A stretch of DNA of 64,000 bases, taken from positions 34,361 through 98,360 of IMG/VR virus record IMGVR_UViG_3300023174_000101. One strand, 5' to 3'. This DNA comes from a virus. The notes beneath the pieces are model-generated. The model did no database searches. It saw only the letters and a list, made by a program, of their open reading frames with translations, and was not told where the DNA came from. How positions within the stretch are numbered: the stretch's first letter is position 1; every line of letters begins with the position of its first letter. The position numbers and the translations under genes are program-made. Of this stretch, positions 32,897 to 56,122 are shown in pieces.

Positions 32897-33169
32897 GTGA
32901 TTAAGCTATCTAAAAAGTGTTGGCGGTGCCCGCCAGAGAAGTCAGAGCAACCCCTAGAGAATTTCTGTAGAGGGGGTAAGGATTCTGTATGCAAAGCATG
33001 CAGGTATCAACTTAACTCCGAGTGGGCGAAGACCAACCGTGATAAGCTACGGCCAAAGCGTGCGCAGTATATGAAGGACTACCGCGCAGCGAAGAAGAGG
33101 GAAAAAGAGGCTCTGGCAGCGAAATCATCCGAAGAAAATAAGCCACCAGAGCCTGGAAGTAGCAATTAA
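32897..33169 (+). CDS. small basic Zn-finger protein, the only convincing plus-strand gene
   Basis: CWRC...CKAC; fills a gap with no minus-strand ORF. Confidence 0.6.
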   Translation: MIKLSKKCWRCPPEKSEQPLENFCRGGKDSVCKACRYQLNSEWAKTNRDKLRPKRAQYMKDYRAAKKREKEALAAKSSEENKPPEPGSSN

Positions 33170-34005
33170 TTACCTGTCTGCTTATCTGTGCCCATCTTAG
33201 CCAAATATTCAGACAGACTCAGACCAGCAAATCCGGGGTGCTTCTCGAACTGCTGAATCGCCTCGTTCACCCATGGCTGAACCCAATAGGTGTACTCCTT
33301 TGGGCGTGGCTGTGCACCTACGTTCGCCTTAATGACCGACCCTAGGTGCTTGTGAATAATGAGCTCTTCATACCCAGAATCACGTACATCACGGCTAGCC
33401 GTGTCAACTAGGCACTGCTGCCCTGCCATATGTCGTGTGATGGAGATTGCCTTAGTATCTTTGCCACAGTTCGGGCACTTATAAAGTACCGACAACTTGC
33501 TGACGTTGAATCCGTCCTCCGAGAACTCGAACAGCATTCGGTCGGTCTTGAGAGTCGGTACGCCCTTGTCGGACTGTAGCTGACGGATTACGTCCGCGTG
33601 GTGCTTCATAATGTCGGCCAGGTCTTCGGTAAACGTCATGAAGTACTCGGGCGAAATCTCGCCTACCGAGTTGTTCGCGCGCTGCTCGGGAAACTTTACT
33701 TTCATCAGTCTTGAGTACGAGCTACGACCCACGCCTGAGTATGCGTTGCGTGTGAGCACAGCAGTCGTGTAGCCTTGGCTCGCGCCATGGATGTTAACGA
33801 CGGCGTATGCCTCCAAGCCACCATTTTGGTCGTTCGTGTACTTCTCTATTGCGTCAATGTTATACTTGATGACGCGCTCCATCTCGCTAACTGACTTGCT
33901 AAAAATATGTGCAAGCTCGTCGGCTGTTGTCTCCCTAACTTCGTGGTCGCCGTTGTCTGAGTTATAATCGTTAATCAAATACTTCGGCGTGAGGTCTGCC
34001 GTCAT
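33166..34005 (-). CDS. GGF-x6-EYL C-terminal domain family, member 1 (with C2HC finger)
   Basis: CPNC...H...C then PWVNEAIQQFEKHPGFAGLSLSEYLAKM. Confidence 0.8.
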   Translation of the reverse strand: MTADLTPKYLINDYNSDNGDHEVRETTADELAHIFSKSVSEMERVIKYNIDAIEKYTNDQNGGLEAYAVVNIHGASQGYTTAVLTRNAYSGVGRSSYSRLMKVKFPEQRANNSVGEISPEYFMTFTEDLADIMKHHADVIRQLQSDKGVPTLKTDRMLFEFSEDGFNVSKLSVLYKCPNCGKDTKAISITRHMAGQQCLVDTASRDVRDSGYEELIIHKHLGSVIKANVGAQPRPKEYTYWVQPWVNEAIQQFEKHPGFAGLSLSEYLAKMGTDKQTGN

Positions 34006-34083
34006 TCTTGGCCTGTCCTAGGGTATGGTTTGGGGAGGATTCGCGGTGCTAAGGCGGCGTTTCGCGTGTTGCACGCCGGACTG

Positions 34084-34099
34084 TGCAATGCGCGTGCCA
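34084..34099 (-). promoter_or_regulatory. sigma54 -24/-12 promoter
   Basis: TGGCACG-CGCA-TTGCA. Confidence 0.8.
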
Positions 34100-34115
34100 C
34101 TATAGTTATACTAAT

Positions 34116-34199
34116 TGGCCAAGGAGGGACTTGAACCCTCATGCCCGTGAAGGCGGCGGATTTTGAGTCCGCTGCGTATACCGATTTCGCCACTCGGCC
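34116..34199 (-). tRNA. tRNA-Leu(CAA)
   Basis: Cloverleaf with long variable arm; anticodon arm GCGGA-CTCAAAA-TCCGC. Confidence 0.92.
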
Positions 34200-34247
34200 C
34201 TAAGTATATCCTATGATAGCAACTGATCGTCACTGGATTAACTGCTT

Positions 34248-35168
34248 CTAGCGTGGATCTCTCTTATGGCGATACATGTGCACATTTACGGTAGGCGCTC
34301 GGCTATTGTCAGACTCAGGTCTCATCTTCTGCAAATAATCATACAAAGACAGACCGGCGAAGCCGCCGTTCTTATTCCATACTTGATATGCACTGTAAAT
34401 CCACTTTGGAACGTATGCGTCATACTTGTACGCTACAAGTTCGGTGTCAATTAGACCGTCGTGACAAAGGTTGTATAGTTCTTTGTTAGAGCGATAGTCA
34501 ACGCGCTCATTGTCGCCGCTGTGAATAACATTGTACATACGGTAGTTAATACACCTGGCAGTCTTCATGTGGCTGGGCAGCTGCTTGGTATTTACTACCG
34601 TACGACAATGTGGACATTCAGACTGGAACGGCACACGGAACGCAGTCAGCTCGATAGCTGGCCAGCTACTATCCGAGCCATCCTGAGACCAATCGCGTAT
34701 TGGCTCTGATGCCATAAAATATGTAGACTTACTGGTGAGCTTGTCATGCTTCGCCTGGAGTAGGAACTTCGCATTATTCTGTCTAAGTTCGTCTATGTAG
34801 CCAATAAACTCTGGCACGGACTCGCGTACGACCTTCTTCGGGGCATATGCAGACCTCCACGAAGAGTTGCCATTCTTGGCCCAGTTTGACATGAAAATTG
34901 TGCCAGTTCCGCACTCCATGGCCATCTTTACAATGTCAGCGTTCTCCTTCATGTACGTAGCCGAATACAACACGTGTATTGGCATGGTGCCACCACCGAA
35001 CATGCTGTAATTGTCGGCCACGCTGGCCGCTAACTTGTCGCGCACATCTGCTAGCCTTTTGTTGGCGATGTCGATGTGTAACTCAATCTCGTCGATCGTA
35101 GGATTAAAAACCACTACGTTACGCCAATTGTCGGTGCCAGCCTGAAGCTCAATTTTTCTTTCGCTCAT
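34248..35168 (-). CDS. GGF-x6-EYL family, member 2 (with C2HC finger)
   Basis: CPHC...H...C then VPKWIYSAYQVWNKNGGFAGLSLYDYLQKM. Confidence 0.8.
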   Translation of the reverse strand: MSERKIELQAGTDNWRNVVVFNPTIDEIELHIDIANKRLADVRDKLAASVADNYSMFGGGTMPIHVLYSATYMKENADIVKMAMECGTGTIFMSNWAKNGNSSWRSAYAPKKVVRESVPEFIGYIDELRQNNAKFLLQAKHDKLTSKSTYFMASEPIRDWSQDGSDSSWPAIELTAFRVPFQSECPHCRTVVNTKQLPSHMKTARCINYRMYNVIHSGDNERVDYRSNKELYNLCHDGLIDTELVAYKYDAYVPKWIYSAYQVWNKNGGFAGLSLYDYLQKMRPESDNSRAPTVNVHMYRHKRDPR

Positions 35169-35507
35169 TTTTATCCAGCCTGCATCCGCAAATATGGTAG
35201 TGTTCGACCTTTACTTCACAATCCTTAGTGCCAGTACATGATACCCACTTGGAGTCGTTACATTTCTTGCATTTTGACATGTTCAAAGTCCACCGATGAG
35301 AATAGTGCGGCAGATAGAATAGAGTGTTGCTCATTCTCCCGCCGTACATTTAGTTTATACGAGTATAACCCCGGCTCTACATCGGTGACTATATATCTTG
35401 CACCAACAGTGGGCTTAAGCTGCTTGGCGAACACGCCCTTACGGCTCACGCAGCGGACTAAATCCCCAACTTTAAACTCTGTAGCGGCCATTGTACTGCA
35501 GTACAAC

Positions 35508-35523
35508 TGCACACGGCGTGCCA
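35508..35523 (-). promoter_or_regulatory. sigma54 -24/-12 promoter
   Basis: TGGCACG-CCGT-GTGCA. Confidence 0.7.
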
Positions 35524-35561
35524 CGGGCCCCTCGTCGGAGCCCGTGGTCGCCAGATGTCAG

Positions 35562-35861
35562 CTACTTGCGAGCGCCGATGGTGCTATCTTGCTCGCGCCC
35601 GCCGAAGTCTCCGGTCTTGGATCGAAGCCCACGTGCGTACTTCTGCACACGTGGGTGTTCAGTGTCCAGACCCTGAGACTCTGCATATCTACGCACCGCG
35701 TCTTCGAACTTGCGGGAGTCTTCATCAATTGGCCTACCCCGCTCATCCGTCATGTGCCCACCCGTTTCGTCCGCGTACTTCTTCACGCGTGGGTCGTCGA
35801 GGGTGAAACCAAGAGACTCTGCCCACTTAATAACGGCCTCAGAATACTGTTTTTCCGGCAT
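35562..35861 (-). CDS. YAxSxGL-repeat protein (2 repeats)
   Basis: AVIKWAESLGFTLDDPRVKKYA and AVRRYAESQGLDTEHPRVQKYA. Confidence 0.7.
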   Translation of the reverse strand: MPEKQYSEAVIKWAESLGFTLDDPRVKKYADETGGHMTDERGRPIDEDSRKFEDAVRRYAESQGLDTEHPRVQKYARGLRSKTGDFGGREQDSTIGARK

Positions 35862-36413
35862 GTTACCCTCTTTGGTTAAGGCGCGCGGCACCACGCCACC
35901 CGCCACAAAAAAGGTAATCACGCCTTCTCGCCGCGACAACTGGTATATCTTATCCGTATAATAGAGTCCAACAGACACAGCAGCGCATTTCAATCTTGTC
36001 GTCTTCCGCGTCTACCATGGTTGTATTATGGTGGTCACATATCGACGCGAGGGTAGACTGTAGGTCTTGAATTTTCTTGTCTAGTACGCCGCGTTGACGT
36101 TCCAAGCGGTCAATCTGCTTCACAAGAGAGTTGATCTTGTTCTGTGCCTTGCTCTTGTTAGCCTTCTCGGCTTTGCGTTTGTGCTGGGGTGTCTTTGCTT
36201 TCTCTGCCTCAAGCTCGGCATCCTTGTCAAGATACCCCTGCGCCTCTTCTGGCCTGGCCACTTTGCTTTCTGCAATGGCCTTACCAGACAAGATGTCTGC
36301 CCTGGAGAAACGACCGACAGTCATCTGTGCAGCAGTTCTCTGACGCATATGTACAACTCTAGCGTAAAGAACGCTCCTAAAGCTATGTACCATGCAGCAG
36401 GTAACTTGTCCAC

Positions 36414-36704
36414 TTAGATCAGTCCTTCGCCCCTTAGGTATGCGAATAATAGAGCTGCAAGTGCTGTATAGGTACCCTCTGTACCAGCATAGTGCTTATC
36501 GAACATCGTACTGAATACATCGTGAAGGACTACACGGGTAGTTTTTATATCCTTCATCTCGTCTATGCGGTACATAGCTGCCTCAATCTCAGACACATAC
36601 TCATCGGGAGGCGCACCCATCTTAATAAGGCCCAGTGGGTCTGCCTCGTTGAAGATGTCGTACAAGTCTGAGAGAAGCTTAGGATTTTGGCGTACGTTTA
36701 TCAT
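36414..36704 (-). CDS. DUF1871-like small protein
   Basis: DPLGL...APPDEY.SEI motif. Confidence 0.6.
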   Translation of the reverse strand: MINVRQNPKLLSDLYDIFNEADPLGLIKMGAPPDEYVSEIEAAMYRIDEMKDIKTTRVVLHDVFSTMFDKHYAGTEGTYTALAALLFAYLRGEGLI

Positions 36705-36708
36705 AGAC

Positions 36709-37232
36709 TCACTTCACATCAAGACCAGACAGTCTGCATCTAGCTTTATATTCTCTAATTCTGGTGTTGTGTGCGGTTTTGCATACTGTACACTTACACT
36801 TGTGGTATCTATACCCAACTGATGTGCCATGTGGTATTTGGTCGTCAGTAAGGGTTGGCCGTAGCTGTCCGCCATTGCTACACTCTTTGGAGCAGAACAG
36901 TCTTCCGGACTTGTTCCTGCTAGAACGCGTTTTAGCCTTGCTTGGCACTAGGCTAAACTGTGTGTTGCAGCGCGCACACGTAAGTTCTAGCCGCTCAGCG
37001 GTACTGTGATGTGAAGCGTGCGCACCTGCAGCCAACATCGAGAGGTTTTCAATCCGATTGCCAGTCTTGTCTTCGTTGACATGATGGACAACGTGCCATC
37101 TGGCACAATCTGCCCAGTGGCTTGCCACCATACTATATGGTGTTCATATGCATAGCGGCCACGGTATAACTTACCAGGGTAGCCAGTTGGAGCCACAACT
37201 AATATGTATGGTCCGTTTCTCATGTTTATCAA
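36709..37232 (-). pseudogene. frameshifted HNH endonuclease
   Basis: YEHHIVWWQATGQIVPDG (36987..37232 frame) continues as HVVHHVNEDKTGNRIENL in another frame; 1 nt is missing near 37095. Confidence 0.75.
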
Positions 37233-37237
37233 CTAAG

Positions 37238-37313
37238 CTCCTTGAGCTGGATTCGAACCAGCGACATCCGAATTAACAGTTCGGCGCTCTACCTAGATCT
37301 GAGCTATCAAGGA
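37238..37313 (-). tRNA. tRNA-Asn(GTT)
   Basis: CCGAA-CTGTTAA-TTCGG; TCCTTGA/TCAAGGA acceptor stem. Confidence 0.92.
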
Positions 37314-37327
37314 ATATAATTGTTGCA

Positions 37328-37398
37328 TGGAGCTAGACAGAATCGAACTGTCAATCTCGCCTTGCAAAGGCGATGTTATCCCGTTTAACTATAGCCCC
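37328..37398 (-). tRNA. tRNA-Ala(TGC)
   Basis: TCGCC-TTTGCAA-GGCGA; G3:U70 identity pair. Confidence 0.88.
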
Positions 37399-37436
37399 TT
37401 GCATTAATAATGCTTACTCATTGCTGCTGGATATAC

Positions 37437-37823
37437 TTAGGAGAAGTAGCCCATACAAAATGCATGGCCCTCTGCATCAATCCAGGAGCGATCATCCTTC
37501 CAAGGCTGCCTAGGTCCACCCGTAGTCTCGGTATGATGATTCTTGCCCTGCTTCTTCTCGTCTACCATCTCCCAGAACTTTTTGGCAGAGATTGGACGTT
37601 TGTACTCGCTCATAATCCTGACCCTTTTGCCATTAATCTTCATGGACATAGCATCGCGCCAATCCTTGGCAGAGTTAATCGGTGCGCCCGTTGGCGACTC
37701 GTACCCTTTGAGCGCCTGAAATGTGAACGACCATCCCATGCTGCTCTTGCCGATGTGATACTGGTTCTCTGGATGCTTGCACGTAGGGCATACGTTTACC
37801 ATCAGATAGTAGTTAGTTCCCAT
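37437..37823 (-). CDS. conserved phage protein (MGTNYY...HIGKSSMGW...FS)
   Basis: Motif recognised as common in phage proteins. Confidence 0.7.
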   Translation of the reverse strand: MGTNYYLMVNVCPTCKHPENQYHIGKSSMGWSFTFQALKGYESPTGAPINSAKDWRDAMSMKINGKRVRIMSEYKRPISAKKFWEMVDEKKQGKNHHTETTGGPRQPWKDDRSWIDAEGHAFCMGYFS

Positions 37824-38127
37824 TCTTGCACCTGTCGCTTACATAAAGAACACGGTCCGCTGGTGAAGTTTCAATCTTCAAGATGCAGTGGTCGAGGATG
37901 CCCTCTCCACCAAACGAGCGCGAGGTCTTGATAAGAAGCGGAATCTTCGTTGGCCCCATGGACCTATTGACCGGGCCGCACATAGGAAGGTCTGGCCAGA
38001 TGTCGCCTGTCTTACTGTCACCGTAATAAATGCGGATTCGCTTGCCGGAAGCGCGAGCGTCTTCAAGGATATTAATCACTGCCTTCGGGGTAGAGTCGTG
38101 GTAAGTCGTGCCGTTCACGATGGGCAT
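37813..38127 (-). CDS. conserved phage protein (RIRIYYGD..TG...GRS-like)
   Basis: Start moved to MPIVNG. Confidence 0.65.
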   Translation of the reverse strand: MPIVNGTTYHDSTPKAVINILEDARASGKRIRIYYGDSKTGDIWPDLPMCGPVNRSMGPTKIPLLIKTSRSFGGEGILDHCILKIETSPADRVLYVSDRCKNGN

Positions 38128-38214
38128 ACAATTGTCCTTGATAAAATGCCACCAGAGGTAAGGTAGTGGCACACTAAATAGCCCCTTACGACTGCATCGG
38201 GAATCTACCCGATG

Positions 38215-38709
38215 CTAGACAGACGCCTCGGTCTCAGCCTTGGTCGGAGACTCGACGCCAGCGCGCGCGCGCGCCTCAGCCAGGCGGGCCTGCAGCTTGG
38301 CACGAATGCTCTCCGCATTGGCAATTACCTGCTCGGGGCTGGGCGTAACCTCAGGCACATCAATTACCTGTGCAGTAGCCTTCTTGGCGGCAGGCTTACG
38401 ACCCGAACCCTTCTTCATTTCTGGGGAGACCGCGCACTGGTGCCAATCGGACTGCTCACGGATGTGGTTCGGACCGCCCTTGATACAGGTCAGCTCCGCA
38501 CGGAGCTTGCCCTTCTCGGAGCGCTCGGAGAGGATGACACCCTTGGAGCCCAACGGCGTGGTAAACTTCATGCCAGCGAGGCCAAGCTTCTTGGCTGCCT
38601 CCATGGTGTAGTGGCCATCCGCATCTGGAGTGAACCCATGCTTGGTGGCTGCGGTCAGGATTGCGGAATCTGCAGAATCAGTAATGGTGGTGTTGGTGTC
38701 GGTGCTCAT
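38215..38709 (-). CDS. Ala/Lys-rich protein, paralogue of 59695..60288
   Basis: KFTTP.G..GV.L.E.S..GK..AELTC...RE.SDWHQC. Confidence 0.75.
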   Translation of the reverse strand: MSTDTNTTITDSADSAILTAATKHGFTPDADGHYTMEAAKKLGLAGMKFTTPLGSKGVILSERSEKGKLRAELTCIKGGPNHIREQSDWHQCAVSPEMKKGSGRKPAAKKATAQVIDVPEVTPSPEQVIANAESIRAKLQARLAEARARAGVESPTKAETEASV

Positions 38710-38762
38710 TGTTTGCCTCTGAGGGTTAAATGCTCAGCGCCACGCTGAGCACTACTACTATA

Positions 38763-38835
38763 TGCGAACGGCGTGCCAGAGGTCTTACCTCTCACACGCC
38801 GCCGCACGACAAAGAATACTGCACTGGCCGTGCCA
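38763..38835 (-). promoter_or_regulatory. tandem sigma54 promoters (38763-38778, 38820-38835)
   Basis: TGGCACG-CCGT-TCGCA and TGGCACG-GCCA-GTGCA. Confidence 0.75.
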
Positions 38836-39028
38836 GTACTATCTATATACAGGGTCTCGGTGAGCGCCGCAGTGGAGGCACTGGCCAGAGCCGCCGAAAA
38901 GATGCTCGGTCCCATTGCAGGCTTGCACTGTTGCCTTAATTAGTGGATTGATGATGAGGTACATGTTCTGTAGGACGTCACGCTGTTCGGATTGCTTGTT
39001 CACGTTTATTTACCCTGCATTTTAAGAG

Positions 39029-39100
39029 TGGACCGGGGTGGAATTGAACCACCGTCACGCACTTATAAGGTGCGGGCCTTAACCATTAGGCGACCAGTCC
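39029..39100 (-). tRNA. tRNA-Ile(TAT)
   Basis: CGCAC-CTTATAA-GTGCG; GGACTGG/CCGGTCC acceptor stem. Confidence 0.85.
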
Positions 39101-39107
39101 TTAATTT

Positions 39108-40427
39108 TTATCGCGGCATTGTCTGTAGTGCTAAGTCGAAAACCTCATCCATGTGTCGAATGTAAAAGCTGTCGTCGAAGCACGATTTAATCTCGTCGCC
39201 AGAAAGTATAGCAGCGATGCTGCCGTGATTAATTGCTGCTGTATACAGTCCAATGTCCGGATTGCCACGTACTTTATTAGATGCTGCCTGCACGAGTGCG
39301 TATGCATCCTGCCTGAGCAGACCCTTGCGTACGAGCATGAGCATAAGGCGCTGACTATAAATCAGGCCACGGGTCTTGAGCATATTGCCTGCCATGGTGT
39401 TCTTGTCGACGGCCAGGTTCTCAATCACGCCGCACATCCTACGTAGCATGTAATCCGCTATACACATGGAGTCTGGGATTATAACCCTCTCTACGGATGA
39501 ATGTGAAATGTCGCGCTCGTGCCATAGCGCCATGTTGTCCATGGCAGTAGACGCATACCCACGCAGCAGACGTGCAAGGCCAGATATGTTCTCAGACGAG
39601 ATTGGATTACGCTTGTGTGGCATTGCAGAGCTGCCCTTTTGGTCAGGCCCGAAGCTTTCAGCGACTTCGCCTACTTCGGTACGGCTCAGATGCCGGATTT
39701 CAATTGCTATGCTCTCAAGGCATCCACCCAGGATGGCAAGCGACGTGATAACCTCTGCATGGATGTCACGCTGCATGACTTGGTTTGACACAATAGACGG
39801 CCTGAGGCCAAGCGTACTTGCTGCATAATGCTCAACGTCTAGGTTCGTGTGTGCAAACGTACCAACTGCACCGGACAGCTTAGCTACGCCTGCACGTAAT
39901 AACGCGTTGACAACACGCGATTCGCAGCGTTCAAGCTCCTTCGCAAATACAAGAATCTTGTGGCCGAATGAGGTCGGCTCTGCGTGGATGCCGTGCGTAC
40001 GTCCGGTGATGTACGTATACTTGTGTTCGTTGGCAAGCTTGAGCATCGCACGCTGCAGGGCGTTGATTTGGTCTACAATAATGCTCAAACTTTTAACTAC
40101 GCCCATGGATAGAGCTGTATCTACAATGTCGGATGAAGTCAGGCCATAGTGCAAGTACCTGGCTGAATCACCGATACGGTTCTCCATAAACGTGATAAAT
40201 GCAATGACGTCATGCTTGGCAAAAGCCTCGATAAGTTCTATCTCTTTAATGTCATCATCTGTGAAGTCGCCTGCTCGAGCCTTGCACTCGTCAGCTGCCT
40301 CTTGCGGTACGAACCCGAATTGGGCCAGGGCGTCTATGACGGCAAGCTCTACGTCACGCCAGCGTCGATACTTCTCGACGTCCGACCAGATGTGTGCCAT
40401 TTCTTCACTGCTATACCTGTTTAGCAT
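39108..40427 (-). CDS. purB: adenylosuccinate lyase
   Basis: KHDV, HYGLTSSD, GRTHGIHAEP, GAVGT, GSSAMPHKRNP, WHERDISHSSVER. Confidence 0.96.
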   Translation of the reverse strand: MLNRYSSEEMAHIWSDVEKYRRWRDVELAVIDALAQFGFVPQEAADECKARAGDFTDDDIKEIELIEAFAKHDVIAFITFMENRIGDSARYLHYGLTSSDIVDTALSMGVVKSLSIIVDQINALQRAMLKLANEHKYTYITGRTHGIHAEPTSFGHKILVFAKELERCESRVVNALLRAGVAKLSGAVGTFAHTNLDVEHYAASTLGLRPSIVSNQVMQRDIHAEVITSLAILGGCLESIAIEIRHLSRTEVGEVAESFGPDQKGSSAMPHKRNPISSENISGLARLLRGYASTAMDNMALWHERDISHSSVERVIIPDSMCIADYMLRRMCGVIENLAVDKNTMAGNMLKTRGLIYSQRLMLMLVRKGLLRQDAYALVQAASNKVRGNPDIGLYTAAINHGSIAAILSGDEIKSCFDDSFYIRHMDEVFDLALQTMPR

Positions 40428-40905
40428 TTAACTCTCGCAAGAACTGCCTGCGCAGCTTACGCGCACGCTTTTTGGACTTTGTCTTATAGAAGCCACGTTT
40501 ACCAAGTGCAGCAAGTGAGTCGGCAAGGTCGTTCATTAGGTGACCGCTATGACCGCGCACCCAGACAAGTTTAACACCAAGACTATTTAACAAAGCCTTG
40601 AATTTATACGCAATCTCTTTATTCTTTTTGGGTGTATACGTGCCATCAGCGATACCTATTGCGTACTGAGAATCAGATACAAGGGTGATACCGTCTGGGT
40701 CTACTATATTCGCAGACAATATCCACTCTACGCCCTTCGTTGCGCCTTCAAGTTCCATTATATTATTTGTAGTGATAGGAGAAGCACCGAATCCCGCTCG
40801 GATTACTTCGTCGCCACTACACACAATCCAACCATAGCCGCCAGGACCAAATCCACCCGACGCAGATCCGTCTGAATATACGTATAGCATATCACCTGCT
40901 GCCAA
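40411..40905 (-). CDS. rnhA: ribonuclease HI
   Basis: YSDGS, TTNNIMELEG, SDSQY, WVRGHSG...NDLADSLA. Confidence 0.92.
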   Translation of the reverse strand: MAAGDMLYVYSDGSASGGFGPGGYGWIVCSGDEVIRAGFGASPITTNNIMELEGATKGVEWILSANIVDPDGITLVSDSQYAIGIADGTYTPKKNKEIAYKFKALLNSLGVKLVWVRGHSGHLMNDLADSLAALGKRGFYKTKSKKRARKLRRQFLRELNAKQV

Positions 40906-41203
40906 AACCAGCGACCATCATGCCAGACATGACCAACATTATGCCCACTGCCTGAGTTCCATTTATCTTGGTGCCATGAAGCATAACGCCAACATACCAT
41001 GAAGTACAGTATAGACCGTCGAATAAAATTGCTGCCATTACTGGACTAAACCTTTGCTTAGTCATGAATGACCACGCTAAAACCGTTACCTGTCCGGACA
41101 AGATAGGCCATACCATGCTACCGCCGCCAAAAGACTTCATGGAAGAGTAACTGCCTAACAAGCCAGCGAATACTATCAATAGGATGGGTGGTATAATGTC
41201 CAT
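40892..41203 (-). CDS. small 4-TM membrane protein (SMR/DMT-like)
   Basis: Four hydrophobic segments. Confidence 0.55.
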   Translation of the reverse strand: MDIIPPILLIVFAGLLGSYSSMKSFGGGSMVWPILSGQVTVLAWSFMTKQRFSPVMAAILFDGLYCTSWYVGVMLHGTKINGTQAVGIMLVMSGMMVAGFGSR

Positions 41204-41222
41204 CCTACAATAATAATTATAA

Positions 41223-41294
41223 CACCGCTGGAGGGAATCGAACCCCCGTGGAACGGATTAGAAATCCGCTGCCTGTCCTCTAGGCTACAGCGGC
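41223..41294 (-). tRNA. tRNA-Arg(TCT)
   Basis: GCGGA-TTTCTAA-TCCGT. Confidence 0.88.
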
Positions 41295-41823
41295 TTAATT
41301 ATAATCGAAATCTTCAGGATTGGGCTGGACCAGAGGCGAATGCGTCTGCTGAAGCATTTCGGACGTCAAGTCCAAACCAAGAGCATCAACCATTTTAACT
41401 GACTCAAGGACAAGGGCCATAGCGCCGTCCCTGTCGTCATTTCGATACTTAGTAGCAGCCGTGGCCATAAGGTCTATGACCTTAACCATCTTCTTTTCCA
41501 CGTCACCGACAGGTGCAGCCAATGCTACTGCGCCCTTAATCTGGTTGAGCTTTTGCCAATTCATGACGTTAGCTTAGAGTCGCGTACCTTTTGAAGAGCC
41601 GTAAAGCAATCACGAAGATCGCCAAGGGTGATTGTCGTGCCGTCGCACTCCAATATGTCCGTATCGTCTGGTGTGTCATCTGACACACCAGACCAGCTTA
41701 CTAGGAGTGAAAGAACGGACTCAACCTTATCTAACTCTTCAACGCTAACCGCCATGATTCGACATGTCCTTTGTTTGGAGGGTTCGCAGATTTTATGACG
41801 CGAGCCCACATCCGGTCAACTTA

Positions 41824-42090
41824 TTAGAATGTATGCTGCGGCTCGTCTGTCTTCTCGTCAGCAACACGGTCCAGGTATTCTGCAGGGCTCATGCCTGCAA
41901 ACCCACCGTTGTCATTGTATGTCTTTAGGGCCTCATTCACCCATTGTGGTACGATATACTCACCTGTAATAGCGGAGATACCCCACTTGACCTTCTCAGT
42001 GTTAAGCATAATTGCGATTGTGTCTTCGTGCGTGAGGCGGGTCCAACCATTTGCAGCGGTATACCAAAGCTTAGGGAGTGGAGTGGTCAT
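41824..42090 (-). CDS. GGF-x6-EYL family, member 3 (stand-alone domain)
   Basis: VPQWVNEALKTYNDNGGFAGMSPAEYLDRV; start moved to MTTPLP. Confidence 0.75.
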   Translation of the reverse strand: MTTPLPKLWYTAANGWTRLTHEDTIAIMLNTEKVKWGISAITGEYIVPQWVNEALKTYNDNGGFAGMSPAEYLDRVADEKTDEPQHTF

Positions 42091-43378
42091 AGTCGTTGGG
42101 ATGCCTAATTGCACGGAAAGTAGGGAGGACAGGTACACCATCATCTGAGAGTCTCTGATACTTGAAGTTAACAGTAGATCCAATTAGCTGCTTGTCGTCC
42201 CACAGCTCTTGCCGCAGGTCCTTGGTCAGGCCCTCGCCCGTGCCTATTTCGAACACGACGCCTGACGGCATCTTGCAAACCATCGTACCAAGCGAGCCCT
42301 CGAGCCAGCCCTTGCCTTCAACCTTGTCGATGACTGTTGCCTCAGCGTCCTCGAATGGCTTTACCTTGGTGATGTCGCTTGTGCGCTTGTTCTTGGGCAC
42401 GGAATCTGCGCGGCGCATGATAAGGCCGTCGCACCCTTGCTCAGCCACGTACTTTACCGCCAGGTCATTAAGCATCTGCTCGGTGGGGTCTTGCACACGC
42501 TCGTACTTTACCAGTTCAAGGTATTTAAGACCCTCTGCAAACGCATTCATCGTAATCATTGCGTTGAGCAGCCGGTCGTCATAGTTAGTCTTAGGCTCGT
42601 CGTACTCTGTACCACGAGCCATGTCGAAGATTACATACTTGAGGTCGCCCTCCGGAGCACGCCCATCCTGGGCGAAGAACAGACGCTGCATGGCCTGGAA
42701 ATCCATGCGCCCATTCTTGTAAACCACAATCTCGCCGTCGAAGTTAATATCGTCGGTCGTGCCCATGCGACCGTAAAGCGTGGCGATCTCGTCTTTGATC
42801 TCTTGGAAGCCCTTCCACTCTTTGCCAGTACGGGAGAGTAGAGTAACTTTGCCGCCCACAATGCGTGCCACGCATCTGCCACCATCAAGCTTAGGCTGTA
42901 AGTACCAATTACCTAGCCTGGACTTTAGCTTTTTGTACTGCTCGGCCAGTGGCACGGCGAACAGAGGAATTGTAGAAGGACCGAAAAGCTTATTGATCTC
43001 TTTAGCACCAACATTCAGCCGTGTGTCACGCAAAAGCATGCGGGATGCCCACTTGTACTGTAGTGGCCCACACCTAGATAGCAGCGTTGATACTGCACGC
43101 TTGGCCGAGTTGCCAGCCATAACACGGTCGCCGTACTCATCCTTGGACAGACAGTAAGCAAGCTCGTTGAGCGCAGACCACCACTCATCATCGTTCCTAT
43201 ACGAAGATGGTGCGTCTGGGTCCGGGTCCACCTTGCGGATGCCAAACGTGACGTCCGGGGAGAGTGCCCAATAGAAGTACTGCTTAAGCTCTTTGGACTC
43301 GTTGTTGCGGATTGATGCGAGCCGGTCATTACCCAGGCTCGCGGACTCGATAAGTTCGAGGCTACGGATTAGACTCAT
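42071..43378 (-). CDS. ATP-dependent DNA ligase
   Basis: QPKLDGGRC (KxDG), FDGEI, IFD, DGLIMR, KVKP, OB-fold FEIGTG...PTF.AIR. Confidence 0.93.
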   Translation of the reverse strand: MSLIRSLELIESASLGNDRLASIRNNESKELKQYFYWALSPDVTFGIRKVDPDPDAPSSYRNDDEWWSALNELAYCLSKDEYGDRVMAGNSAKRAVSTLLSRCGPLQYKWASRMLLRDTRLNVGAKEINKLFGPSTIPLFAVPLAEQYKKLKSRLGNWYLQPKLDGGRCVARIVGGKVTLLSRTGKEWKGFQEIKDEIATLYGRMGTTDDINFDGEIVVYKNGRMDFQAMQRLFFAQDGRAPEGDLKYVIFDMARGTEYDEPKTNYDDRLLNAMITMNAFAEGLKYLELVKYERVQDPTEQMLNDLAVKYVAEQGCDGLIMRRADSVPKNKRTSDITKVKPFEDAEATVIDKVEGKGWLEGSLGTMVCKMPSGVVFEIGTGEGLTKDLRQELWDDKQLIGSTVNFKYQRLSDDGVPVLPTFRAIRHPNDYDHSTP

Positions 43379-43414
43379 GGTATTAATTGTGGTTGATTTG
43401 TGGAGAACCACAGG

Positions 43415-43441
43415 GGGGAGGGAGCCCAATGCTCCCTCCCC
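43415..43441. terminator. 11-bp GC-rich hairpin between genes (terminator or 5' stabiliser)
   Basis: GGGGAGGGAGC-ccaat-GCTCCCTCCCC. Confidence 0.5.
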
Positions 43442-45556: not shown

Positions 45557-45629
45557 TGGGACCGGTGGGGATCGAACCCACGACCATAGGATTAAAAGTC
45601 CTGTGCTCTACCAACTGAGCTACGGTCCC
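45557..45629 (-). tRNA. tRNA-Lys(TTT)
   Basis: Canonical cloverleaf; anticodon loop CTTTTAA. Confidence 0.93.
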
Positions 45630-45637
45630 TGGGCTGC

Positions 45638-46288
45638 TTACTGCTTAATCTCAATTACGACCTTAACGCTGTCGTTGTCGTATCCTACGAGCATCGTCTT
45701 GTCGCCGTTAGGGAAGTCGATAACGTTCAGCACGTTTCCGTAGTTGTGCGCTCCCCTAATTGACGCCCCGTGCTTGGCAAGCTCTTTGTCGATTTGGTCT
45801 ACAATGTAGTTATTGTAATGCGCCAGACCTTTTGGCACTGAGATGGATAGAGCTGCACTGCCGCTTGACGGGGCGGGGATTGCGACTTCAACGTTGAACG
45901 TAACGGTCTGAGGCAGATTGACTGTGTTCGGGTTAACGCCAGCCGCCTGCTGCGTGGGCTGCTGTGCCTGTGCCTGCTGGGCTTGGGGTTGCTGCTGGGC
46001 CGCAATCTTAGCTGCACGCCCGTTAGCCTCGTCCTCAGTGAGAACGGAGGGAGACTGTGCCATGAACTTACCGACCGGGGTCTCAAACCAGTCGCCGTCC
46101 TTGATGCGGTTATCCTCGGAGCGTAGTCCGTGTAGCGCCTTCTTCATGGCGTCTGCAGCGCTGGGGTCGGTCTGCGGACAGCCGATGTCAATCATCACGG
46201 CGCTGTTGAGCAGCGGGACCTTAAGGCCCTGGACCTCATACCAGCCGTCGTTCGCACCTGCGTACAATTCAGATACAGTGTAGTTCAT
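45638..46288 (-). CDS. two-domain protein with Gln-rich linker
   Basis: ORF with its own promoter. Confidence 0.65.
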   Translation of the reverse strand: MNYTVSELYAGANDGWYEVQGLKVPLLNSAVMIDIGCPQTDPSAADAMKKALHGLRSEDNRIKDGDWFETPVGKFMAQSPSVLTEDEANGRAAKIAAQQQPQAQQAQAQQPTQQAAGVNPNTVNLPQTVTFNVEVAIPAPSSGSAALSISVPKGLAHYNNYIVDQIDKELAKHGASIRGAHNYGNVLNVIDFPNGDKTMLVGYDNDSVKVVIEIKQ

Positions 46289-46321
46289 TTCACTCTCATT
46301 GGGGATTGCGCGTGTTGTAAC

Positions 46322-46337
46322 TGCATACGGCGTGCCG
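46322..46337 (-). promoter_or_regulatory. sigma54 -24/-12 promoter
   Basis: CGGCACG-CCGT-ATGCA. Confidence 0.7.
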
Positions 46338-46999
46338 GCGGCCTCTACGGCGAGACCGCAGCCACACCAGCTTCCATATACTTGACGTTGGGTAGGAGCT
46401 TTGCCCCTGTTACTTCGTGTTCAACTACACCCTTCATGTCCGATACCAGCTTATTGATGCACAAGATTGCGTTATTAATGCTTGAATCTGCACCCATCTG
46501 TACGTGTGCTGTGCAAAGCAGGTCGTACTTGTCAGCCCGTACACCGTACGTACTTGAGCTTGGGGTGAAACGTACGCCAACCAAGCCCGACTTTGGCCTA
46601 AAGCAGGCTTTCATGTCGTTAGCGGCTGTAATATAAACGTCTTTCAGCTGCGGCGACACTATGTTGATGCCATACAGCTGGGCGTCGGCCATGACTGATC
46701 GCTCTACTTTAAAATCTACTTCGTATAGCATATAGTCACCTAGTAAATTGAAATGTCGCCGCCACCATCAAGGCCACTGACTGCACCCCAATCGCCCCAC
46801 TCTGGAATCATGCCCATGCAATCGCCATGGTGCTTTATACGAGCAAGAATGGTTAGATTCTTTTCGGAGCGAAGGTGTCCCTCTTCGCCCTTGTATTCTT
46901 TGTAGTACGTGTCTAAGTAAACTACGTTCTTGTCCTTCGTCCTCTGCTTCTTTTTGGGCCAACCAGACATTGTACACTCACTTGCTTGGGGTTTAAAAG

Positions 47000-47071
47000 T
47001 GGGCCGTGCAGGATTCGAACCTGCAACCAATCAGTTATGAGCTGACCGCTCGACCATTGAGCTAACGGCCC
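47000..47071 (-). tRNA. tRNA with CAT anticodon (Ile2-like or elongator Met)
   Basis: TCAG-CTCATAA-CTGA; body resembles tRNA-Ile2; not an initiator. Confidence 0.85.
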
Positions 47072-50148: not shown

Positions 50149-50691
50149 TCACATCGCTTCCATCTTGTTGAGGTATTCCTCGATTGTGAGATCACCGAAC
50201 CCACCTTTCGAGAATATAGACATCGCGGACAGCACCCACTTGGGGACAACGTAGGCGCAAGTCCTCTGACAAAATTTGACCCTTATTCTCTTAGCCTGGA
50301 GCGCAGTCTTCATATGATGAGCGTCAGGGAGCGTGGTCCACACATCGCTGTGGAATTCGAACTCACTGAGGAGCTCGATGTTTGCGAGCCTCCGAGCCAT
50401 CGTATGAGCGGAACCAGAGTGCAAAAACCTCATGGTCTCAGACCCAGCCATTGTACCATAGATTCTTCCACCACCATCGAAGTGCCTGACGGTGTATTCC
50501 CTGCGTGCTCCACGCCTCTGTTCAGAGGTTACGAAGTACGTACTTCGTAACCTCGAGGTTACGAAGTACACGCCGCCAGTGCCCTCATAGACTTTGCTAT
50601 GGACACGGCTCTTGAACCAGCGCATGTGCTCTTTATCGAAGAACTTGCCGCCGAACTCTATGTGTCTCCTCTTGATGTCATCGATAGTCAT
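50149..50691 (-). CDS. GGF-x6-EYL family, member 6 (fused to an unrelated N-domain)
   Basis: VPKWVLSAMSIFSKGGFGDLTIEEYLNKM; GGAGG RBS. Confidence 0.75.
   Translation of the reverse strand: MTIDDIKRRHIEFGGKFFDKEHMRWFKSRVHSKVYEGTGGVYFVTSRLRSTYFVTSEQRRGARREYTVRHFDGGGRIYGTMAGSETMRFLHSGSAHTMARRLANIELLSEFEFHSDVWTTLPDAHHMKTALQAKRIRVKFCQRTCAYVVPKWVLSAMSIFSKGGFGDLTIEEYLNKMEAM
50525..50569. repeat. 15-bp inverted triplication (direct-inverted-direct)
   Basis: GAGGTTACGAAGTAC|GTACTTCGTAACCTC|GAGGTTACGAAGTAC. Confidence 0.9.
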
Positions 50692-52110: not shown

Positions 52111-53253
52111 TTACTGGGTCTCACACGGGATGAACGTCGAGCCAGGCGGCGGCTTCGTGTGCGGGTCCCGTGTAAAGCCTCCTACAATCAGATGCCTGAC
52201 TGAACTTGGCACCTGAGGCCAGCCATCACCAAAGAACTCGCAGTCGGTGAAGTGAACCATCGAGTCGAACTTCCCCTGTTCCCCGATATCAAGGTAAGCG
52301 GGTAGTGGGTCGGTTCCACCACTGAACTGCGTGGCGTCTTCCACCTTGCCAGTCGTGCGGTCAGTAACCCAAGACTTGTAGACTACCTCGGAAGTGTGTG
52401 CGTTGAGATAGCACTTCGTTCCGGGGTACGTCTTGAGCAGGGCCTTCACTTCCGATACGATCTTCTCGACCCATTCCTTCGACATGGAGCCTGAGACGTC
52501 AATCGAAATCGCCACCTTCGGTTCGTGGCCGACCCAGCCGGGGAACTGTGGACCCTCGGCAGGCGACCTCCTAGACTTGCGGGCAAACGTCTGGGAGTCT
52601 CGACCGGGACGTGCTGCAGCCTGCTGGAATCCAGAGCGCAGCACCTTCTTCCAGTCAATCTTAGGAGCGCGTGGGGCAAGCAGCCCTGCGAACCCCGCAG
52701 TTCCCTTCCCCGCCTGCTGCGACATTGCACGCGCTTCAATCGCGGTCTGCCGCCAATCTACGTCCGTGCCGTCGTCCAGCGTGCCGCATCCACCACCTGG
52801 GAGCGGAATCCCCTGTGGCTTCTCTGGTACTTGGTCCGGATTCTTCATCAGCCAATCGTACAGATTCTCTGAGAATAGATCCCCCTTGTAATCCGGAGGA
52901 GGGAATAGACCTCCAGGCGGGAGCGAGATTCCGTCTGTGCGGAGAGCGTTGTTAATGCACATGTCATTCGCAACGTTCCACACCCACTGGTCTCTCCCCT
53001 GCTGTCGGTCGTGGTGGCTGAGGATAAGGTGCAGCATCTCGTGGGCTAACACCCCCTTGAGATGCTCCTTGTCCATGTTCATCACGAAATCCGAATTGAC
53101 GTGGATTCTGCCAGACTTCGCAATCGCCATTGTCGGCTGTGCGTTGTCTTCCACGTACAAATTCGAGATTTTAGCGTGAATCAGGATGAAGTGAGGATAC
53201 TGGAATCCAAGTACCATCACCGCGTTCTTGCATTTCTCAATCGCTTTGCTCAT
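52111..53253 (-). CDS. DUF2201-like metallopeptidase-VWA protein
   Basis: HEMLH, WNVAND, DVSGSM (MIDAS), GGT, FTD. Confidence 0.88.
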   Translation of the reverse strand: MSKAIEKCKNAVMVLGFQYPHFILIHAKISNLYVEDNAQPTMAIAKSGRIHVNSDFVMNMDKEHLKGVLAHEMLHLILSHHDRQQGRDQWVWNVANDMCINNALRTDGISLPPGGLFPPPDYKGDLFSENLYDWLMKNPDQVPEKPQGIPLPGGGCGTLDDGTDVDWRQTAIEARAMSQQAGKGTAGFAGLLAPRAPKIDWKKVLRSGFQQAAARPGRDSQTFARKSRRSPAEGPQFPGWVGHEPKVAISIDVSGSMSKEWVEKIVSEVKALLKTYPGTKCYLNAHTSEVVYKSWVTDRTTGKVEDATQFSGGTDPLPAYLDIGEQGKFDSMVHFTDCEFFGDGWPQVPSSVRHLIVGGFTRDPHTKPPPGSTFIPCETQ

Positions 53254-53794
53254 TCGGCCTCCCTGTTGTTTGTATCCTTACTACTTGATTGCGCTTCTTG
53301 AACTGACAATTCATACAAAGCACCTGCAGGGGAGGGTCGTTAGGATATCCGTTCTTTCTAAGCCATGCATAAAACTGCAAGCCAGCTGATATGCCCAACT
53401 TCCTCCTGTGAGCAGCACCATCATCGTTTACATGGTCGAGCGACAAGCACCTTAAATCTGCCTCGCCGCATGAATTACATCTTGCACCACCATATTGCTC
53501 GAGTACATGCGTCTTTGACCTAATTCTGATGTCTATGTCGCGTCTGCAAAGCTTATCAGCGCATGCGGTACACCTGACAATTCCATCCTCGCGCTTCGCC
53601 TTGCAGCAATCAACGCACAAGTCGTTGGCCTTTGCCTTCTCCATCAAGGCGGCTTTCCTCTTGTCAACCTTAATCGAACAGTCGACGCAGGTAAATGTGC
53701 CTTCGCGTGGCTCACGAACTCCACACTTAACACATTTACCTGCGTCCTTGCGCCTGTAATACCTATCCTTGAACCACTTGTTTTTGTCGAACAT
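53237..53794 (-). CDS. HNH endonuclease with Zn-finger repeats
   Basis: CNSCG...LSLDHVNDDG...LQVLCMNC. Confidence 0.75.
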   Translation of the reverse strand: MFDKNKWFKDRYYRRKDAGKCVKCGVREPREGTFTCVDCSIKVDKRKAALMEKAKANDLCVDCCKAKREDGIVRCTACADKLCRRDIDIRIRSKTHVLEQYGGARCNSCGEADLRCLSLDHVNDDGAAHRRKLGISAGLQFYAWLRKNGYPNDPPLQVLCMNCQFKKRNQVVRIQTTGRPNEQSD

Positions 53795-53832
53795 GCCACG
53801 ACTATAGAAGTCGGGGATGCGACGTGAACGGG

Positions 53833-55011
53833 TCAGCTCCTCATCGCATTCCCAATTCCACGCAGAAGCTCGGTCTGCGCCTTATCGGCCTCCGCGTACC
53901 ACTTGCTCGACTTGTGCTTCTTGATCCCGAAGTCGGGGCGACCAAGCACGTTCAGTGCGGCGACCCGAATCTCACGGTCCTGAATGCGGTTGCTGTAGAC
54001 CCAGGCGGGGCAGGGGTCCTCAGCTGCTACCTGGCCGATGATTCCAAGCACCGCGATGCCGACGTTGATGTTCGCAGGGATCTTGGCCGTGTCGGGGGAG
54101 GCGATAATCTCTCGAACTCCCGGCAGCTGGTGTCGAATCTTGCGAATCGCCATGTAAGCTGCGGCGGGCTGGTCTCCCACGTTGCCTGCCAGACCCGCCA
54201 TGAACACGGGACTGGTGTCAGGCTCGCCAGAGAGGAGAGCCTCGGCAACGAATTCCACCGCACGCTGCCACGAGCGTGGCGCACCCCACGGCTTGCCCTC
54301 TGCCTGGGTGCCAGGCGGCGGCTCAAGCTGCAGCAGGTCGGGCGAGGACTCGAGCGTGGCTGCAAAGTCAATCGCAACCCGACGCTTCATCGCATCAGCC
54401 TGCATCTCGCGGTGGGCCTTCACGACCTCCGGATTCTGCTTATCCTCGTCGCTCAACTCGGGGACTTCACTCGGGTCGATGCCGAACCGATAGAAGTAAT
54501 CCTGAATCTCTGCTCGGGTGGGCATCATCTCAATGTGGGTCATGCGGCCAATCAGGGGAAGTGCCAATTCCCACCCACCCGCAGCTTGGTGACTGGGGTT
54601 GGATGCTGCTACGATGCGACTGCCGGGGTGGAGCTTCCTATCACCAGCCCGACGAGCGTAGATGAGCTGCATGCTCGCACCCTGCACCGCAGGAGGCGTG
54701 CAGGACAATTCATCCAGGAAGAGGAGCACGGGCTCGTTGCATGCCCGCTTGATGGCACCAAGCGGCAGGCGGTCGAGTCCTCCGTTCGACACGACAGGGA
54801 AACCGCCGATATCGGTCGGGTCACACTGCGAGAGGAGCAGAGTCTCAACCGGCATGCCGGTCTCCTCTCCGATTCCCTCAATGATGGCCGACTTGCCAAC
54901 TCCCGGAGGACCGACCAGGTGAATGGGCGTGTTCGACCGAAGTGAGTAGGACAGCGCCTTCTTGCAGTCCGTGAGAGAAAGGCGATTGATGGACAAAGAC
55001 GGATTGGACAT
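53833..55011 (-). CDS. MoxR-like AAA+ ATPase
   Basis: GPPGVGKS, LFLDEL, AASNP, RM, PRSW. Confidence 0.9.
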   Translation of the reverse strand: MSNPSLSINRLSLTDCKKALSYSLRSNTPIHLVGPPGVGKSAIIEGIGEETGMPVETLLLSQCDPTDIGGFPVVSNGGLDRLPLGAIKRACNEPVLLFLDELSCTPPAVQGASMQLIYARRAGDRKLHPGSRIVAASNPSHQAAGGWELALPLIGRMTHIEMMPTRAEIQDYFYRFGIDPSEVPELSDEDKQNPEVVKAHREMQADAMKRRVAIDFAATLESSPDLLQLEPPPGTQAEGKPWGAPRSWQRAVEFVAEALLSGEPDTSPVFMAGLAGNVGDQPAAAYMAIRKIRHQLPGVREIIASPDTAKIPANINVGIAVLGIIGQVAAEDPCPAWVYSNRIQDREIRVAALNVLGRPDFGIKKHKSSKWYAEADKAQTELLRGIGNAMRS

Positions 55012-55077
55012 AAATTCCTTGGTTTAGTGTGAGACTGCGGGGTTGGGGGTTTGACTGCGGGGACTGCCGCCAGAAAA

Positions 55078-55142
55078 AGCAAGGGCCGTGCCAGCTCTAC
55101 TACACTCTCCCACCGTCTTCGGCGGGTGCACGGCCCGTGCCA
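55078..55142 (-). promoter_or_regulatory. tandem sigma54 promoters (55078-55093, 55127-55142)
   Basis: TGGCACG-GCCC-TTGCT and TGGCACG-GGCC-GTGCA. Confidence 0.78.
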
Positions 55143-55150
55143 GTCCAGGC

Positions 55151-56122
55151 TTACTCTTCACTGTTACCATCATACTCATCGTTCGGCAACTGCATCTGCT
55201 CTGCATCTGCGGGTCGCATCTTGTCGAGGTACTCGTCAAGGCTCATGCCCGCGAATCCTCCACCATCATTGTACTTCTTGATGGCTGCTGCAACCCAGTC
55301 TGGAGCCCAATACTCAATGGACTTCGGGCGGGCAACAACACCAACATCTGCTTTCAGAACCCTTCCAATTCCGCGAATATGCGTGATGTTGACGTAGCCT
55401 GCTTCCCGCACGTCCTTAGATGTGGATTCTGCCTGGCACGTGCGGCTCGATTTGTGGCGTGAGAGGCTGTGGTGCGGAATCCACCTTCCACACTTCTCAC
55501 ACATTGCATTCGACACGATACGCTCGAACTTGATCGCTCCATACGGTAGACTCTGCTCTCTCACGAACGTGGCGATGTATTCACTAATCTTGCCCGTTGT
55601 CTTGAGTGTCGACAGCGCGACCTCATTTATCTCGAGCGCTTGCGTGTACATGTCCGCGAGCGAGTAAAAGTACTCAATCGGAGAGCCAGGCGGATTGAAC
55701 GGTCGGCCCATGAACTTAGCGCCACCTTGATACATACTTGCCGCGCTCATGTCGAACATTAGCGCCTTGGATTTATGTGTCCTATACTCTGCATAAGCTA
55801 CGAACTGTACTGGCAGATGCTTCTTCAAGATTATGTGGATTGGCACTACTGCATACTTAATCCACGACCTTCGTCCAACCTCACCAAGTGGGAGCGACAA
55901 CTCAACGTTCTCATTGGAGAGGATTTGGCCGTAGCCTCCCCAATTGGATGCGTGAAGGAAATGGGTGTCAAACTCCGGTGTGTCACTGCCAAACGACTCC
56001 AAAGCGGAGACTGCCTCACCTGCTAGGCGTTCAATGTCTGTGGTATGATTCTCGATGAAACGCGCAACCTCGTCACGGTCGAACGTCTCATATCTGTCGT
56101 ACTCGTACTTGATTTTGCTCAT
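55151..56122 (-). CDS. GGF-x6-EYL family, member 7 (with C2HC finger)
   Basis: CEKC...H...C then APDWVAAAIKKYNDGGGFAGMSLDEYLDKM. Confidence 0.8.
   Translation of the reverse strand: MSKIKYEYDRYETFDRDEVARFIENHTTDIERLAGEAVSALESFGSDTPEFDTHFLHASNWGGYGQILSNENVELSLPLGEVGRRSWIKYAVVPIHIILKKHLPVQFVAYAEYRTHKSKALMFDMSAASMYQGGAKFMGRPFNPPGSPIEYFYSLADMYTQALEINEVALSTLKTTGKISEYIATFVREQSLPYGAIKFERIVSNAMCEKCGRWIPHHSLSRHKSSRTCQAESTSKDVREAGYVNITHIRGIGRVLKADVGVVARPKSIEYWAPDWVAAAIKKYNDGGGFAGMSLDEYLDKMRPADAEQMQLPNDEYDGNSEE

Follow-up and report, generated by a model that had tools for sequence, protein, structure and literature searches.

The question raised by this locus is what a protein region repeated at the C-termini of seven dispersed gene products does for the phage that encodes it. 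The window, that is the whole stretch of 64,000 nucleotides analysed here, corresponds to bases 34361-98360 of the 98,360-bp linear IMG/VR virus record IMGVR_UViG_3300023174_000101 (CheckV completeness 61%), and the seven genes lie between 33166 and 56122 of the window, all on the minus strand. The shared tail, hereafter the module, is predicted to be a previously undescribed, autonomously folding domain of approximately 65-75 residues. What is established is that the seven tails are homologous and have defined boundaries, that the module is associated with a zinc finger and stands at the C-terminus, that its copies stem from old duplications which selection has maintained, and that no curated family contains it. 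As to function, the module is read tentatively, and with clearly less than even confidence, as a binding domain of a new, divergent winged-helix-like type, whose ligand is probably nucleic acid.

Seven minus-strand open reading frames (ORFs) are open at 33166-34005, 34248-35168, 41824-42090, 44169-44462, 45189-45521, 50149-50691 and 55151-56122, and each ends in the shared motif when aligned. The member of 88 amino acids (aa), used as a single query against the whole 98,360-bp record, retrieved exactly seven sites, the other six at E 5e-11 to 4e-5, and a six-frame hidden Markov model (HMM) search of the record returned the same number of copies, with the next ORF at E 0.56. Leave-one-out HMMs recovered every left-out copy among 2,166 six-frame ORFs (E 3e-9 to 5.5e-19; next unrelated ORF at E >= 0.3), and a profile made from foreign homologues only matched the 33-aa C-terminal half in all seven copies (E 5e-12 to 2e-18). 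Upstream of this half, an extension of ~30-40 aa is weak in each single copy (E 0.0055 to 1.1), with six of the seven ranking among the top nine ORFs at the correct position. A sequence-only reading of this DNA had proposed seven dispersed proteins with a common C-terminal domain, preceded by about 40 aa of weaker similarity; the single-sequence, leave-one-out and foreign-profile searches all agree with the former, and the ranking of the extensions, together with AlphaFold models that fold both halves as a single domain, supports the latter. The HMM search of the genome that it had advised yielded the seven copies and none clear beyond them, no distinct eighth copy being found among the 2,166 six-frame ORFs of the 98-kb record, and the HMM matched no characterised domain. 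Just outside the window, at positions 30314-30817 of the record (minus strand), a 168-aa frame with GFGGMTFAEFLSH matches the module's last helix marginally (E 0.002-0.003) and may be a decayed eighth copy.

The family extends well beyond this record. An exhaustive HMMER search of 1.84 billion representatives produced 192 clusters at E <= 1e-3, 39 of them at E <= 1e-10. The majority of matches are proteins of 230-280 aa with the same C2HC finger that occurs in the long proteins of the window, and the other forms comprise domain-only proteins of 55-110 aa, a tandem arrangement (P0041), fusions to DUF7447 and a subgroup whose tails are rich in Arg and Lys. In 155 of 160 proteins the module stands at the C-terminus, followed by a median of four residues. 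A word-indexed protein search with a 98-sequence alignment retrieved six proteins. In the representative search, P0005 and P0140 were left out of the family as repeat-driven matches. P0005, a eukaryote-looking protein of 1385 aa, contains ~30 tandem 16-aa repeats (D-M-T-[IV]-E-E-Y-L-K-S-M-K-P-D-E-P) strikingly similar to the consensus for the last helix and tail of the module.

The module matched no entry in Pfam, PHROGs or NCBIfam, and a 32-sequence module profile found nothing at E <= 10 among PDB sequences. When the HMM consensus was scanned against Pfam, nothing beyond noise emerged (DUF1329, fvmX5, DOCK; E >= 0.06); the sole Pfam domain in the seven proteins is DUF7447, on the N-terminus of 50149-50691. 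Two members yielded no tblastn match in 50,697 INPHARED phage records, and a DNA search against 50,697 cultured-phage records returned tRNA matches only. Searches for related loci confirmed no relative in IMG/VR with A2, P0004, A5 and P0019 as queries and found none in JGI metagenomes or GTDB genomes with A6, while the degenerate DNA pattern W-V-x-x-A-[IV]-x-x-[YF]...G-[FY]-A-G retrieved 44 stretches from IMG/VR, none of which encodes the module. The family is apparently confined to uncultured large phages; that the present phage is large follows from the recurrence of the 279-aa protein (33166-34005) on a 167.6-kb contig. Similarity to OST-HTH/LOTUS was considered and dropped: a 7-sequence profile gave PDB 2kpm_A at E 0.19, the hit vanished with the 32-sequence profile, and no LOTUS or 2kpm row appeared in the fold searches. 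The domain is undescribed at family level, and it probably belongs to a known fold class. With ~190 clusters and no Pfam, PHROGs or NCBIfam entry, it constitutes a clean, well-bounded new domain family.

AlphaFold2 models, made with family alignments, place the elements in the order strand, helix, two-strand hairpin, helix, Gly-rich loop, helix (b-a-b-b-a-a). In the model of the 88-aa protein, with a predicted local distance difference test (pLDDT) score of 82.3, these are strand 16-18, helix 22-29, strands 37-39 and 45-48, and helices 49-60 and 69-79. The 279-aa protein was modelled at pLDDT 82.6, rising above 94 over residues 170-270, which contain zinc finger and module, and its N-terminal part is predicted to form a beta-hairpin, a long helical hairpin and a small sheet. 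The module helices are spaced identically in the two models. The invariant core occupies the last 33 residues, [WY]-V-P-x-W-V-x-x-A-I-x-x-Y ... G-[FY]-A-G-[ML]-x-L-x-E-[YF]-L-x-K-M-x-P, and the invariant positions (P51, W53, V54, A57, Y61, G66, F/Y67, A68, G69, M/L70, L72, Y/F75, L76, M79) are read as core and turn residues. Conserved columns are nearly all hydrophobic, Gly or Pro, and no catalytic-looking polar set is present among them. Two charged positions separated by one turn of helix, E74 (89% acidic) and K78 (83% basic), are conserved, and the end of the first helix, the putative recognition helix, is 50-55% K/R, making it, with K78, the most basic part of the alignment. A binding scaffold whose surfaces have diversified would fit this pattern.

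The four longer proteins turn out to be less heterogeneous than their sequences suggest at first sight. In the 279-, 306- and 323-aa proteins alike, the module is immediately preceded by a zinc finger of the form CxxC-x11-H-x5-C. In the 279-aa protein (33166-34005), which has an N-terminal beta-hairpin and helical hairpin, the finger spans residues 177-198 (33412-33477) and the module residues 198-273 (33187-33414; leave-one-out E 2.8e-16). The 306-aa protein (34248-35168), separated from it by tRNA-Leu only, has the finger at residues 185-206 (34551-34616) and the module at residues 209-284 (34317-34544; leave-one-out E 1.7e-11), and the 323-aa protein (55151-56122) has them at residues 208-229 (55436-55501) and 229-304 (55211-55438; leave-one-out E 5.5e-19). 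Fingers were located by regular expression and modules by HMM envelope. Among the homologues of at least 135 aa, 103 of 118 have a C2HC finger (CxxC-x(8-16)-H-x(3-6)-C) just before the module and three more a C2H2-like one; in the ~250-aa form the module directly follows the C2HC finger and an R-D-x-R-E-x-G-[WY] linker. The Cys/His ligands, C177, C180, H192 and C198 in the 279-aa protein, are invariant or nearly so in the 98 aligned family sequences. Pfam matches to zf-C2HC_3, TRAF6_Z2 and Znf_XAF1_N are weak (E 0.003-0.005, a single member each), and the finger conforms to a C2HC pattern with TRAF/XAF1-like spacing and is a putative metal site.

A profile of the N-terminal region, built without the window proteins and their close orthologues, matches 33166-34005 (E 9e-11) and 34248-35168 (E 1.1e-5), and its match to 55151-56122 stays below significance (E 0.35). 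Because two of the long N-terminal regions match this external profile, the long proteins are not four unrelated fusions; judged on sequence, the three with a finger are paralogues of a single ~250-aa zinc-finger family. It follows that only the DUF7447 fusion has a truly different architecture: of the seven window proteins, three belong to a single zinc-finger family, one is this fusion and three are short forms. The different fusion is a 180-aa protein (50149-50691) with DUF7447 (PF24239) at residues 2-73 (50473-50688; 52.4 bits against a cut-off of 24.1; also phrog_4655) and the module at residues 107-179 (50155-50373; leave-one-out E 7.4e-12). This is the sole DUF7447 copy in the record, and P0117 shares the architecture. 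DUF7447/phrog_4655, a family of unassigned function of which no mention was found in the literature, covers the N-terminal 73 residues and not the shared module.

The sequence-only reading is thereby partly retained and partly revised. Its description of an unrecognised domain stands, since Pfam, PHROGs, NCBIfam and PDB sequences contain no match and no fold match is significant, and so does that of a modular one, as the module occurs after C2HC or C2H2-like fingers or DUF7447, alone, in tandem and before Arg/Lys-rich tails; it also fills most of the 88-, 97- and 110-aa proteins, which had been called nearly stand-alone. What has to be given up is the fusion to dissimilar N-terminal regions in four proteins, three of these being paralogues of one zinc-finger family.

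Module identity among the seven paralogues is 18-42%, and five of the seven have their own closer orthologue in other assemblies, with module identities of 54-82%. Thus, 33166-34005 corresponds to P0153 and P0154 (67-71%), 34248-35168 to P0016 (73%), 55151-56122 to P0004 (82%) and 45189-45521 to P0025 (64% identical). In orthologue pairs the module is 64-72% identical, against 40-53% for the N-terminal part. These identities and the constraint seen in orthologues indicate old duplicates kept by selection, rather than recent copies or chance ORFs.

The age of the copies and the diversity of their surfaces also bear on the idea that the module is a host-takeover or anti-defence scaffold, a small stable fold whose variable surfaces would let the paralogues bind host proteins that differ from copy to copy. 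Conservation is confined to the core, the module's isoelectric point (pI) ranges from 4.4 to 9.4, each of the seven old paralogues is kept in related phages, the genes lie among ORFans in the accessory region of a large phage, and the family is absent from the INPHARED cultured phages and from PHROGs. No known anti-defence family was matched, however, a lone Tad5 match (E 0.007, one of 98 members) being noise, and the idea leaves unexplained both the link to the zinc finger and the tight coupling with ligase and denV genes. We consider it unlikely, though worth keeping in view. Phage families of the KilAC/ANT and Bro type likewise combine one shared domain with varied partners and occur as several paralogues per genome. 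The module proteins resemble them in domain shuffling and in the dispersal of paralogues in large viral genomes, but show no sequence match to them in Pfam or PHROGs.

The three short genes are interleaved with DNA-repair genes, namely a ligase and a denV-like glycosylase. The 88-aa stand-alone protein (41824-42090; module residues 6-78, 41857-42075; leave-one-out E 3.1e-17) begins within the ATP-dependent DNA ligase gene (42071-43429), the last 20 nucleotides (nt) of which it overlaps. The 97-aa protein (44169-44462; module residues 20-90, 44193-44405; leave-one-out E 3.1e-9) shares 4 nt with the denV-like glycosylase gene (44459-44944) at the stop of the latter, and both overlaps with the 3' ends of repair genes suggest translational coupling. 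The 110-aa protein (45189-45521; module residues 30-110, 45192-45434; leave-one-out E 1.8e-11) lies directly downstream of tRNA-Lys; its ATG start, as called earlier, is borne out, because the longer frame from a TTG would run into the tRNA. The 88-aa protein and its orthologues P0036, P0013 and P0044 share a conserved P-x-H-T-F-COOH tail beyond the module, which may be a second short terminal motif. The 88-aa stand-alone member lends itself readily to structure determination and to binding assays.

It is this interleaving with repair genes, together with the zinc-finger coupling, the basic-tail subgroup and recurrent MerR-type structural neighbours, that leads us to infer both the fold class and nucleic-acid binding. 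In the ancestral setting envisaged, the module would form the C-terminal half of a ~250-aa phage protein, behind a C2HC finger and linker; the present phage retains seven old paralogues, as three long forms, one DUF7447 fusion and three nearly domain-only proteins. A very divergent winged-helix-type module of MerR/Xis-like topology would then act with the zinc finger to bind nucleic acid, the most likely target being DNA of the phage or its host, and because the surfaces have diversified, the paralogues would recognise different sites or have turned into regulators or decoys. The structural side comes from the ESM Atlas's own model of the 88-aa protein, whose nearest clusters are MerR_1/HTH_17 (template modelling (TM) score 0.50-0.52 over 73-76 aa); the MerR/Xis-type likeness extends across two models and two libraries and is a lead, not proof. 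As the only structural lead available, it would favour a MerR/Xis-type winged helix, and hence DNA binding, over a tag.

The likeness to MerR/Xis winged helices, in their minimal forms TnrA/GlnR, RacA and BldC, lies in a similar size of ~70 aa, in a similar predicted order of elements (helix, beta-hairpin wing and two helices with a Gly-containing turn), and in the existence of small stand-alone forms in both groups. In contrast to them, the module shows no sequence or profile similarity, has a strand in place of the first helix of the helix-turn-helix, is acidic in some members, and lacks the C-terminal coiled-coil dimerisation helix, the long forms having instead an N-terminal helical hairpin and a C2HC finger. 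Several results weigh against a winged-helix, nucleic-acid-binding assignment. Membership of MerR by sequence was rejected, since hhalign of a 161-sequence profile against the DNA-binding domains of SoxR, CueR and ZntR gave a probability of 0.6%, and the MerR_1/HTH_17 models (PF13411, PF00376, PF12728) matched none of ~180 members, 32 of which were scanned to E 10. Foldseek returned nothing at E <= 0.001 from PDB with either model or from BFVD with the long one, and where a canonical helix-turn-helix begins with a helix, the AlphaFold2 model shows a short strand. Within the pI range of 4.4 to 9.4, two copies of the window fall clearly on the acidic side, where DNA binders are seldom found, and no operator-like repeat was found. 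Moreover, the nearly obligatory C-terminal position (155 of 160) and the marginal similarity of C-termini in unrelated repeat proteins to the last ~25 residues alone also fit a terminal docking element. Should the domain bind DNA, it would represent a new branch of winged-helix regulators in a phage group that also has unusual nucleotide-metabolism genes.

The last two points lead to a different explanation, according to which the module, or mainly its C-terminal helix-loop-helix, is a docking handle for one shared partner; we regard this as possible but rather doubtful. Besides its terminal position, with a median of four residues behind it, the module is carried by unrelated bodies (the zinc-finger family, DUF7447, helical proteins with basic tails, and a tandem form), and marginal last-~25-residue matches occur on HEAT-like ORFs of a related phage as well as on the ORF outside the window. 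On the other hand, the shared element is a folded 65-75-aa domain with core-like conserved residues and few conserved surface positions (E74, K78 and an acidic residue at 56), and the seven genes are located among tRNA, repair and accessory genes and not within a structural module. The HEAT-like repeat ORFs, L009:2253-2507 (+) and L012:1210-1554 (+) of IMGVR_UViG_3300033486_000001, match the module's terminal helix-loop-helix only, with ends of the type W-L-x-x-x-Y-G-Y-S-M-S-L-x-E-F-L / G-Y-S-G-M-S-L-E-D-F-L and marginal E-values of 1e-3 to 1e-2; this terminal piece may travel on its own. In a variant of the docking idea, the module would be a capsid-packaging or ejection signal. The encapsulin cargo-loading peptide and the T4 capsid-targeting sequence are short terminal peptides on proteins that occur inside the shell, encoded together with structural genes or close to them, whereas the module is a folded domain encoded among tRNA and repair genes.

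The most concrete candidate partner lies next to the 323-aa paralogue, whose gene is directly upstream of one for a MoxR-like AAA_5 ATPase (53833-55011, minus; Pfam AAA_5 at 4.7e-9), followed by that for a DUF2201_N zincin-like metallopeptidase with a VWA-like domain (52111-53253, minus; PF13203 1.7e-20, PF09967 1.1e-4); neither belongs to the family. This pair could capture, remodel or cleave module proteins. VWA domains of MoxR pairs have been proposed to capture substrate peptides, and vWA-MoxR systems are known to be accompanied by zincin-like peptidases and by small, rapidly evolving proteins that end in a conserved peptide (PMC7159879); the published proposal of peptide capture and of zincin-like processing of such small proteins also speaks for docking. 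The adjacency was examined at four loci. The JGI contig L008 encodes a 75-aa stand-alone copy, a 281-aa zinc-finger+module protein and a marginal 89-aa copy, and at L008:7980-11759 (+) the order is zinc-finger+module, degenerate 89-aa copy, MoxR and DUF2201, the same as 55151-56122, 53833-55011 and 52111-53253 in the window. The recurrence of the zinc-finger+module gene directly upstream of MoxR and DUF2201 lends the docking idea a little weight, but an order seen twice may be inherited rather than independent, given identities of 55% between the MoxR proteins and only 25% between the zinc-finger+module proteins. Three further IMG/VR relatives of MoxR (49%, 37% and 30% identity) have no clear module near MoxR or in their whole records, one of which is a complete 81.5-kb genome; the existence of phages with MoxR proteins 49% and 37% identical and no clear module counts against docking. 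The phage of the 49% relative is the one that carries the marginal HEAT-like repeat ORFs. L008 also encodes ThyX, a phosphoribosyltransferase and tRNA-Met, and a 185-aa ORFan (53237-53794, minus), which lies between MoxR and DUF2201 in the window and overlaps the start of DUF2201 by 17 nt, is absent from that position in L008.

In its most specific form, the docking idea would make the helix-loop-helix an address label read by a phage machine, MoxR with the VWA/zincin-like peptidase being the best candidate; this we judge unlikely. The closest parallel is provided by the FxSxx-COOH proteins (Kaur et al., 2020; PMC7159879), which likewise have variable bodies and a conserved C-terminal element, and, as in those systems, one family member stands beside MoxR and a VWA/zincin-like peptidase in two phages. 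The module differs from them in being a folded 65-75-aa domain and not a short peptide, six of the seven copies lie away from the MoxR genes, MoxR relatives without a module exist, and cleavage of the module is here only hypothetical. If an address label were at work, at least seven proteins, including DNA-repair accessories, would be directed to a single hub for their remodelling or processing. Such client selection by a virus-encoded system would be new in kind, and a docking handle in general would provide the first client set for the widespread and uncharacterised phage MoxR/DUF2201 pair.

The dispersal of the copies between conserved genes finally recalls selfish mobile elements, in which case the genes would encode the DNA-binding parts of homing-endonuclease-like insertions. 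A zinc finger next to a small DNA-binding-like domain resembles the C-terminal organisation of I-TevI, and a genuine HNH gene is located nearby (36709-37131). Yet Pfam and NCBIfam scans detected no nuclease domain in ~160 members, the predicted N-terminal fold of a helical hairpin and beta elements corresponds to no known nuclease, the paralogues are old (18-42% identity), and orthologues in related phages agree in length and architecture, all of which makes this origin highly improbable.

As regards the wider setting, every gene between 32 and 57 kb of the window is on the minus strand and closely packed. A scan for sigma-70 promoters and terminators over 41-57 kb gave a result no better than shuffled sequences. 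Neighbours with an assignable family include adenylosuccinate lyase, the ATP-dependent DNA ligase, the denV-like glycosylase, the MoxR-like AAA_5 ATPase and the DUF2201 protein with its zincin-like peptidase and VWA-like domain, the remaining ones being mostly ORFans by Pfam and PHROGs. Seven tRNA genes (Leu-CAA, Asn, Ala, Ile-TAT, Arg-TCT, Lys and Met; 34116-47071, minus strand) are scattered among the module paralogues, and the HNH endonuclease gene lies within this tRNA-rich stretch, on the same strand, with a match to PHROG 7545 at E 2e-9.

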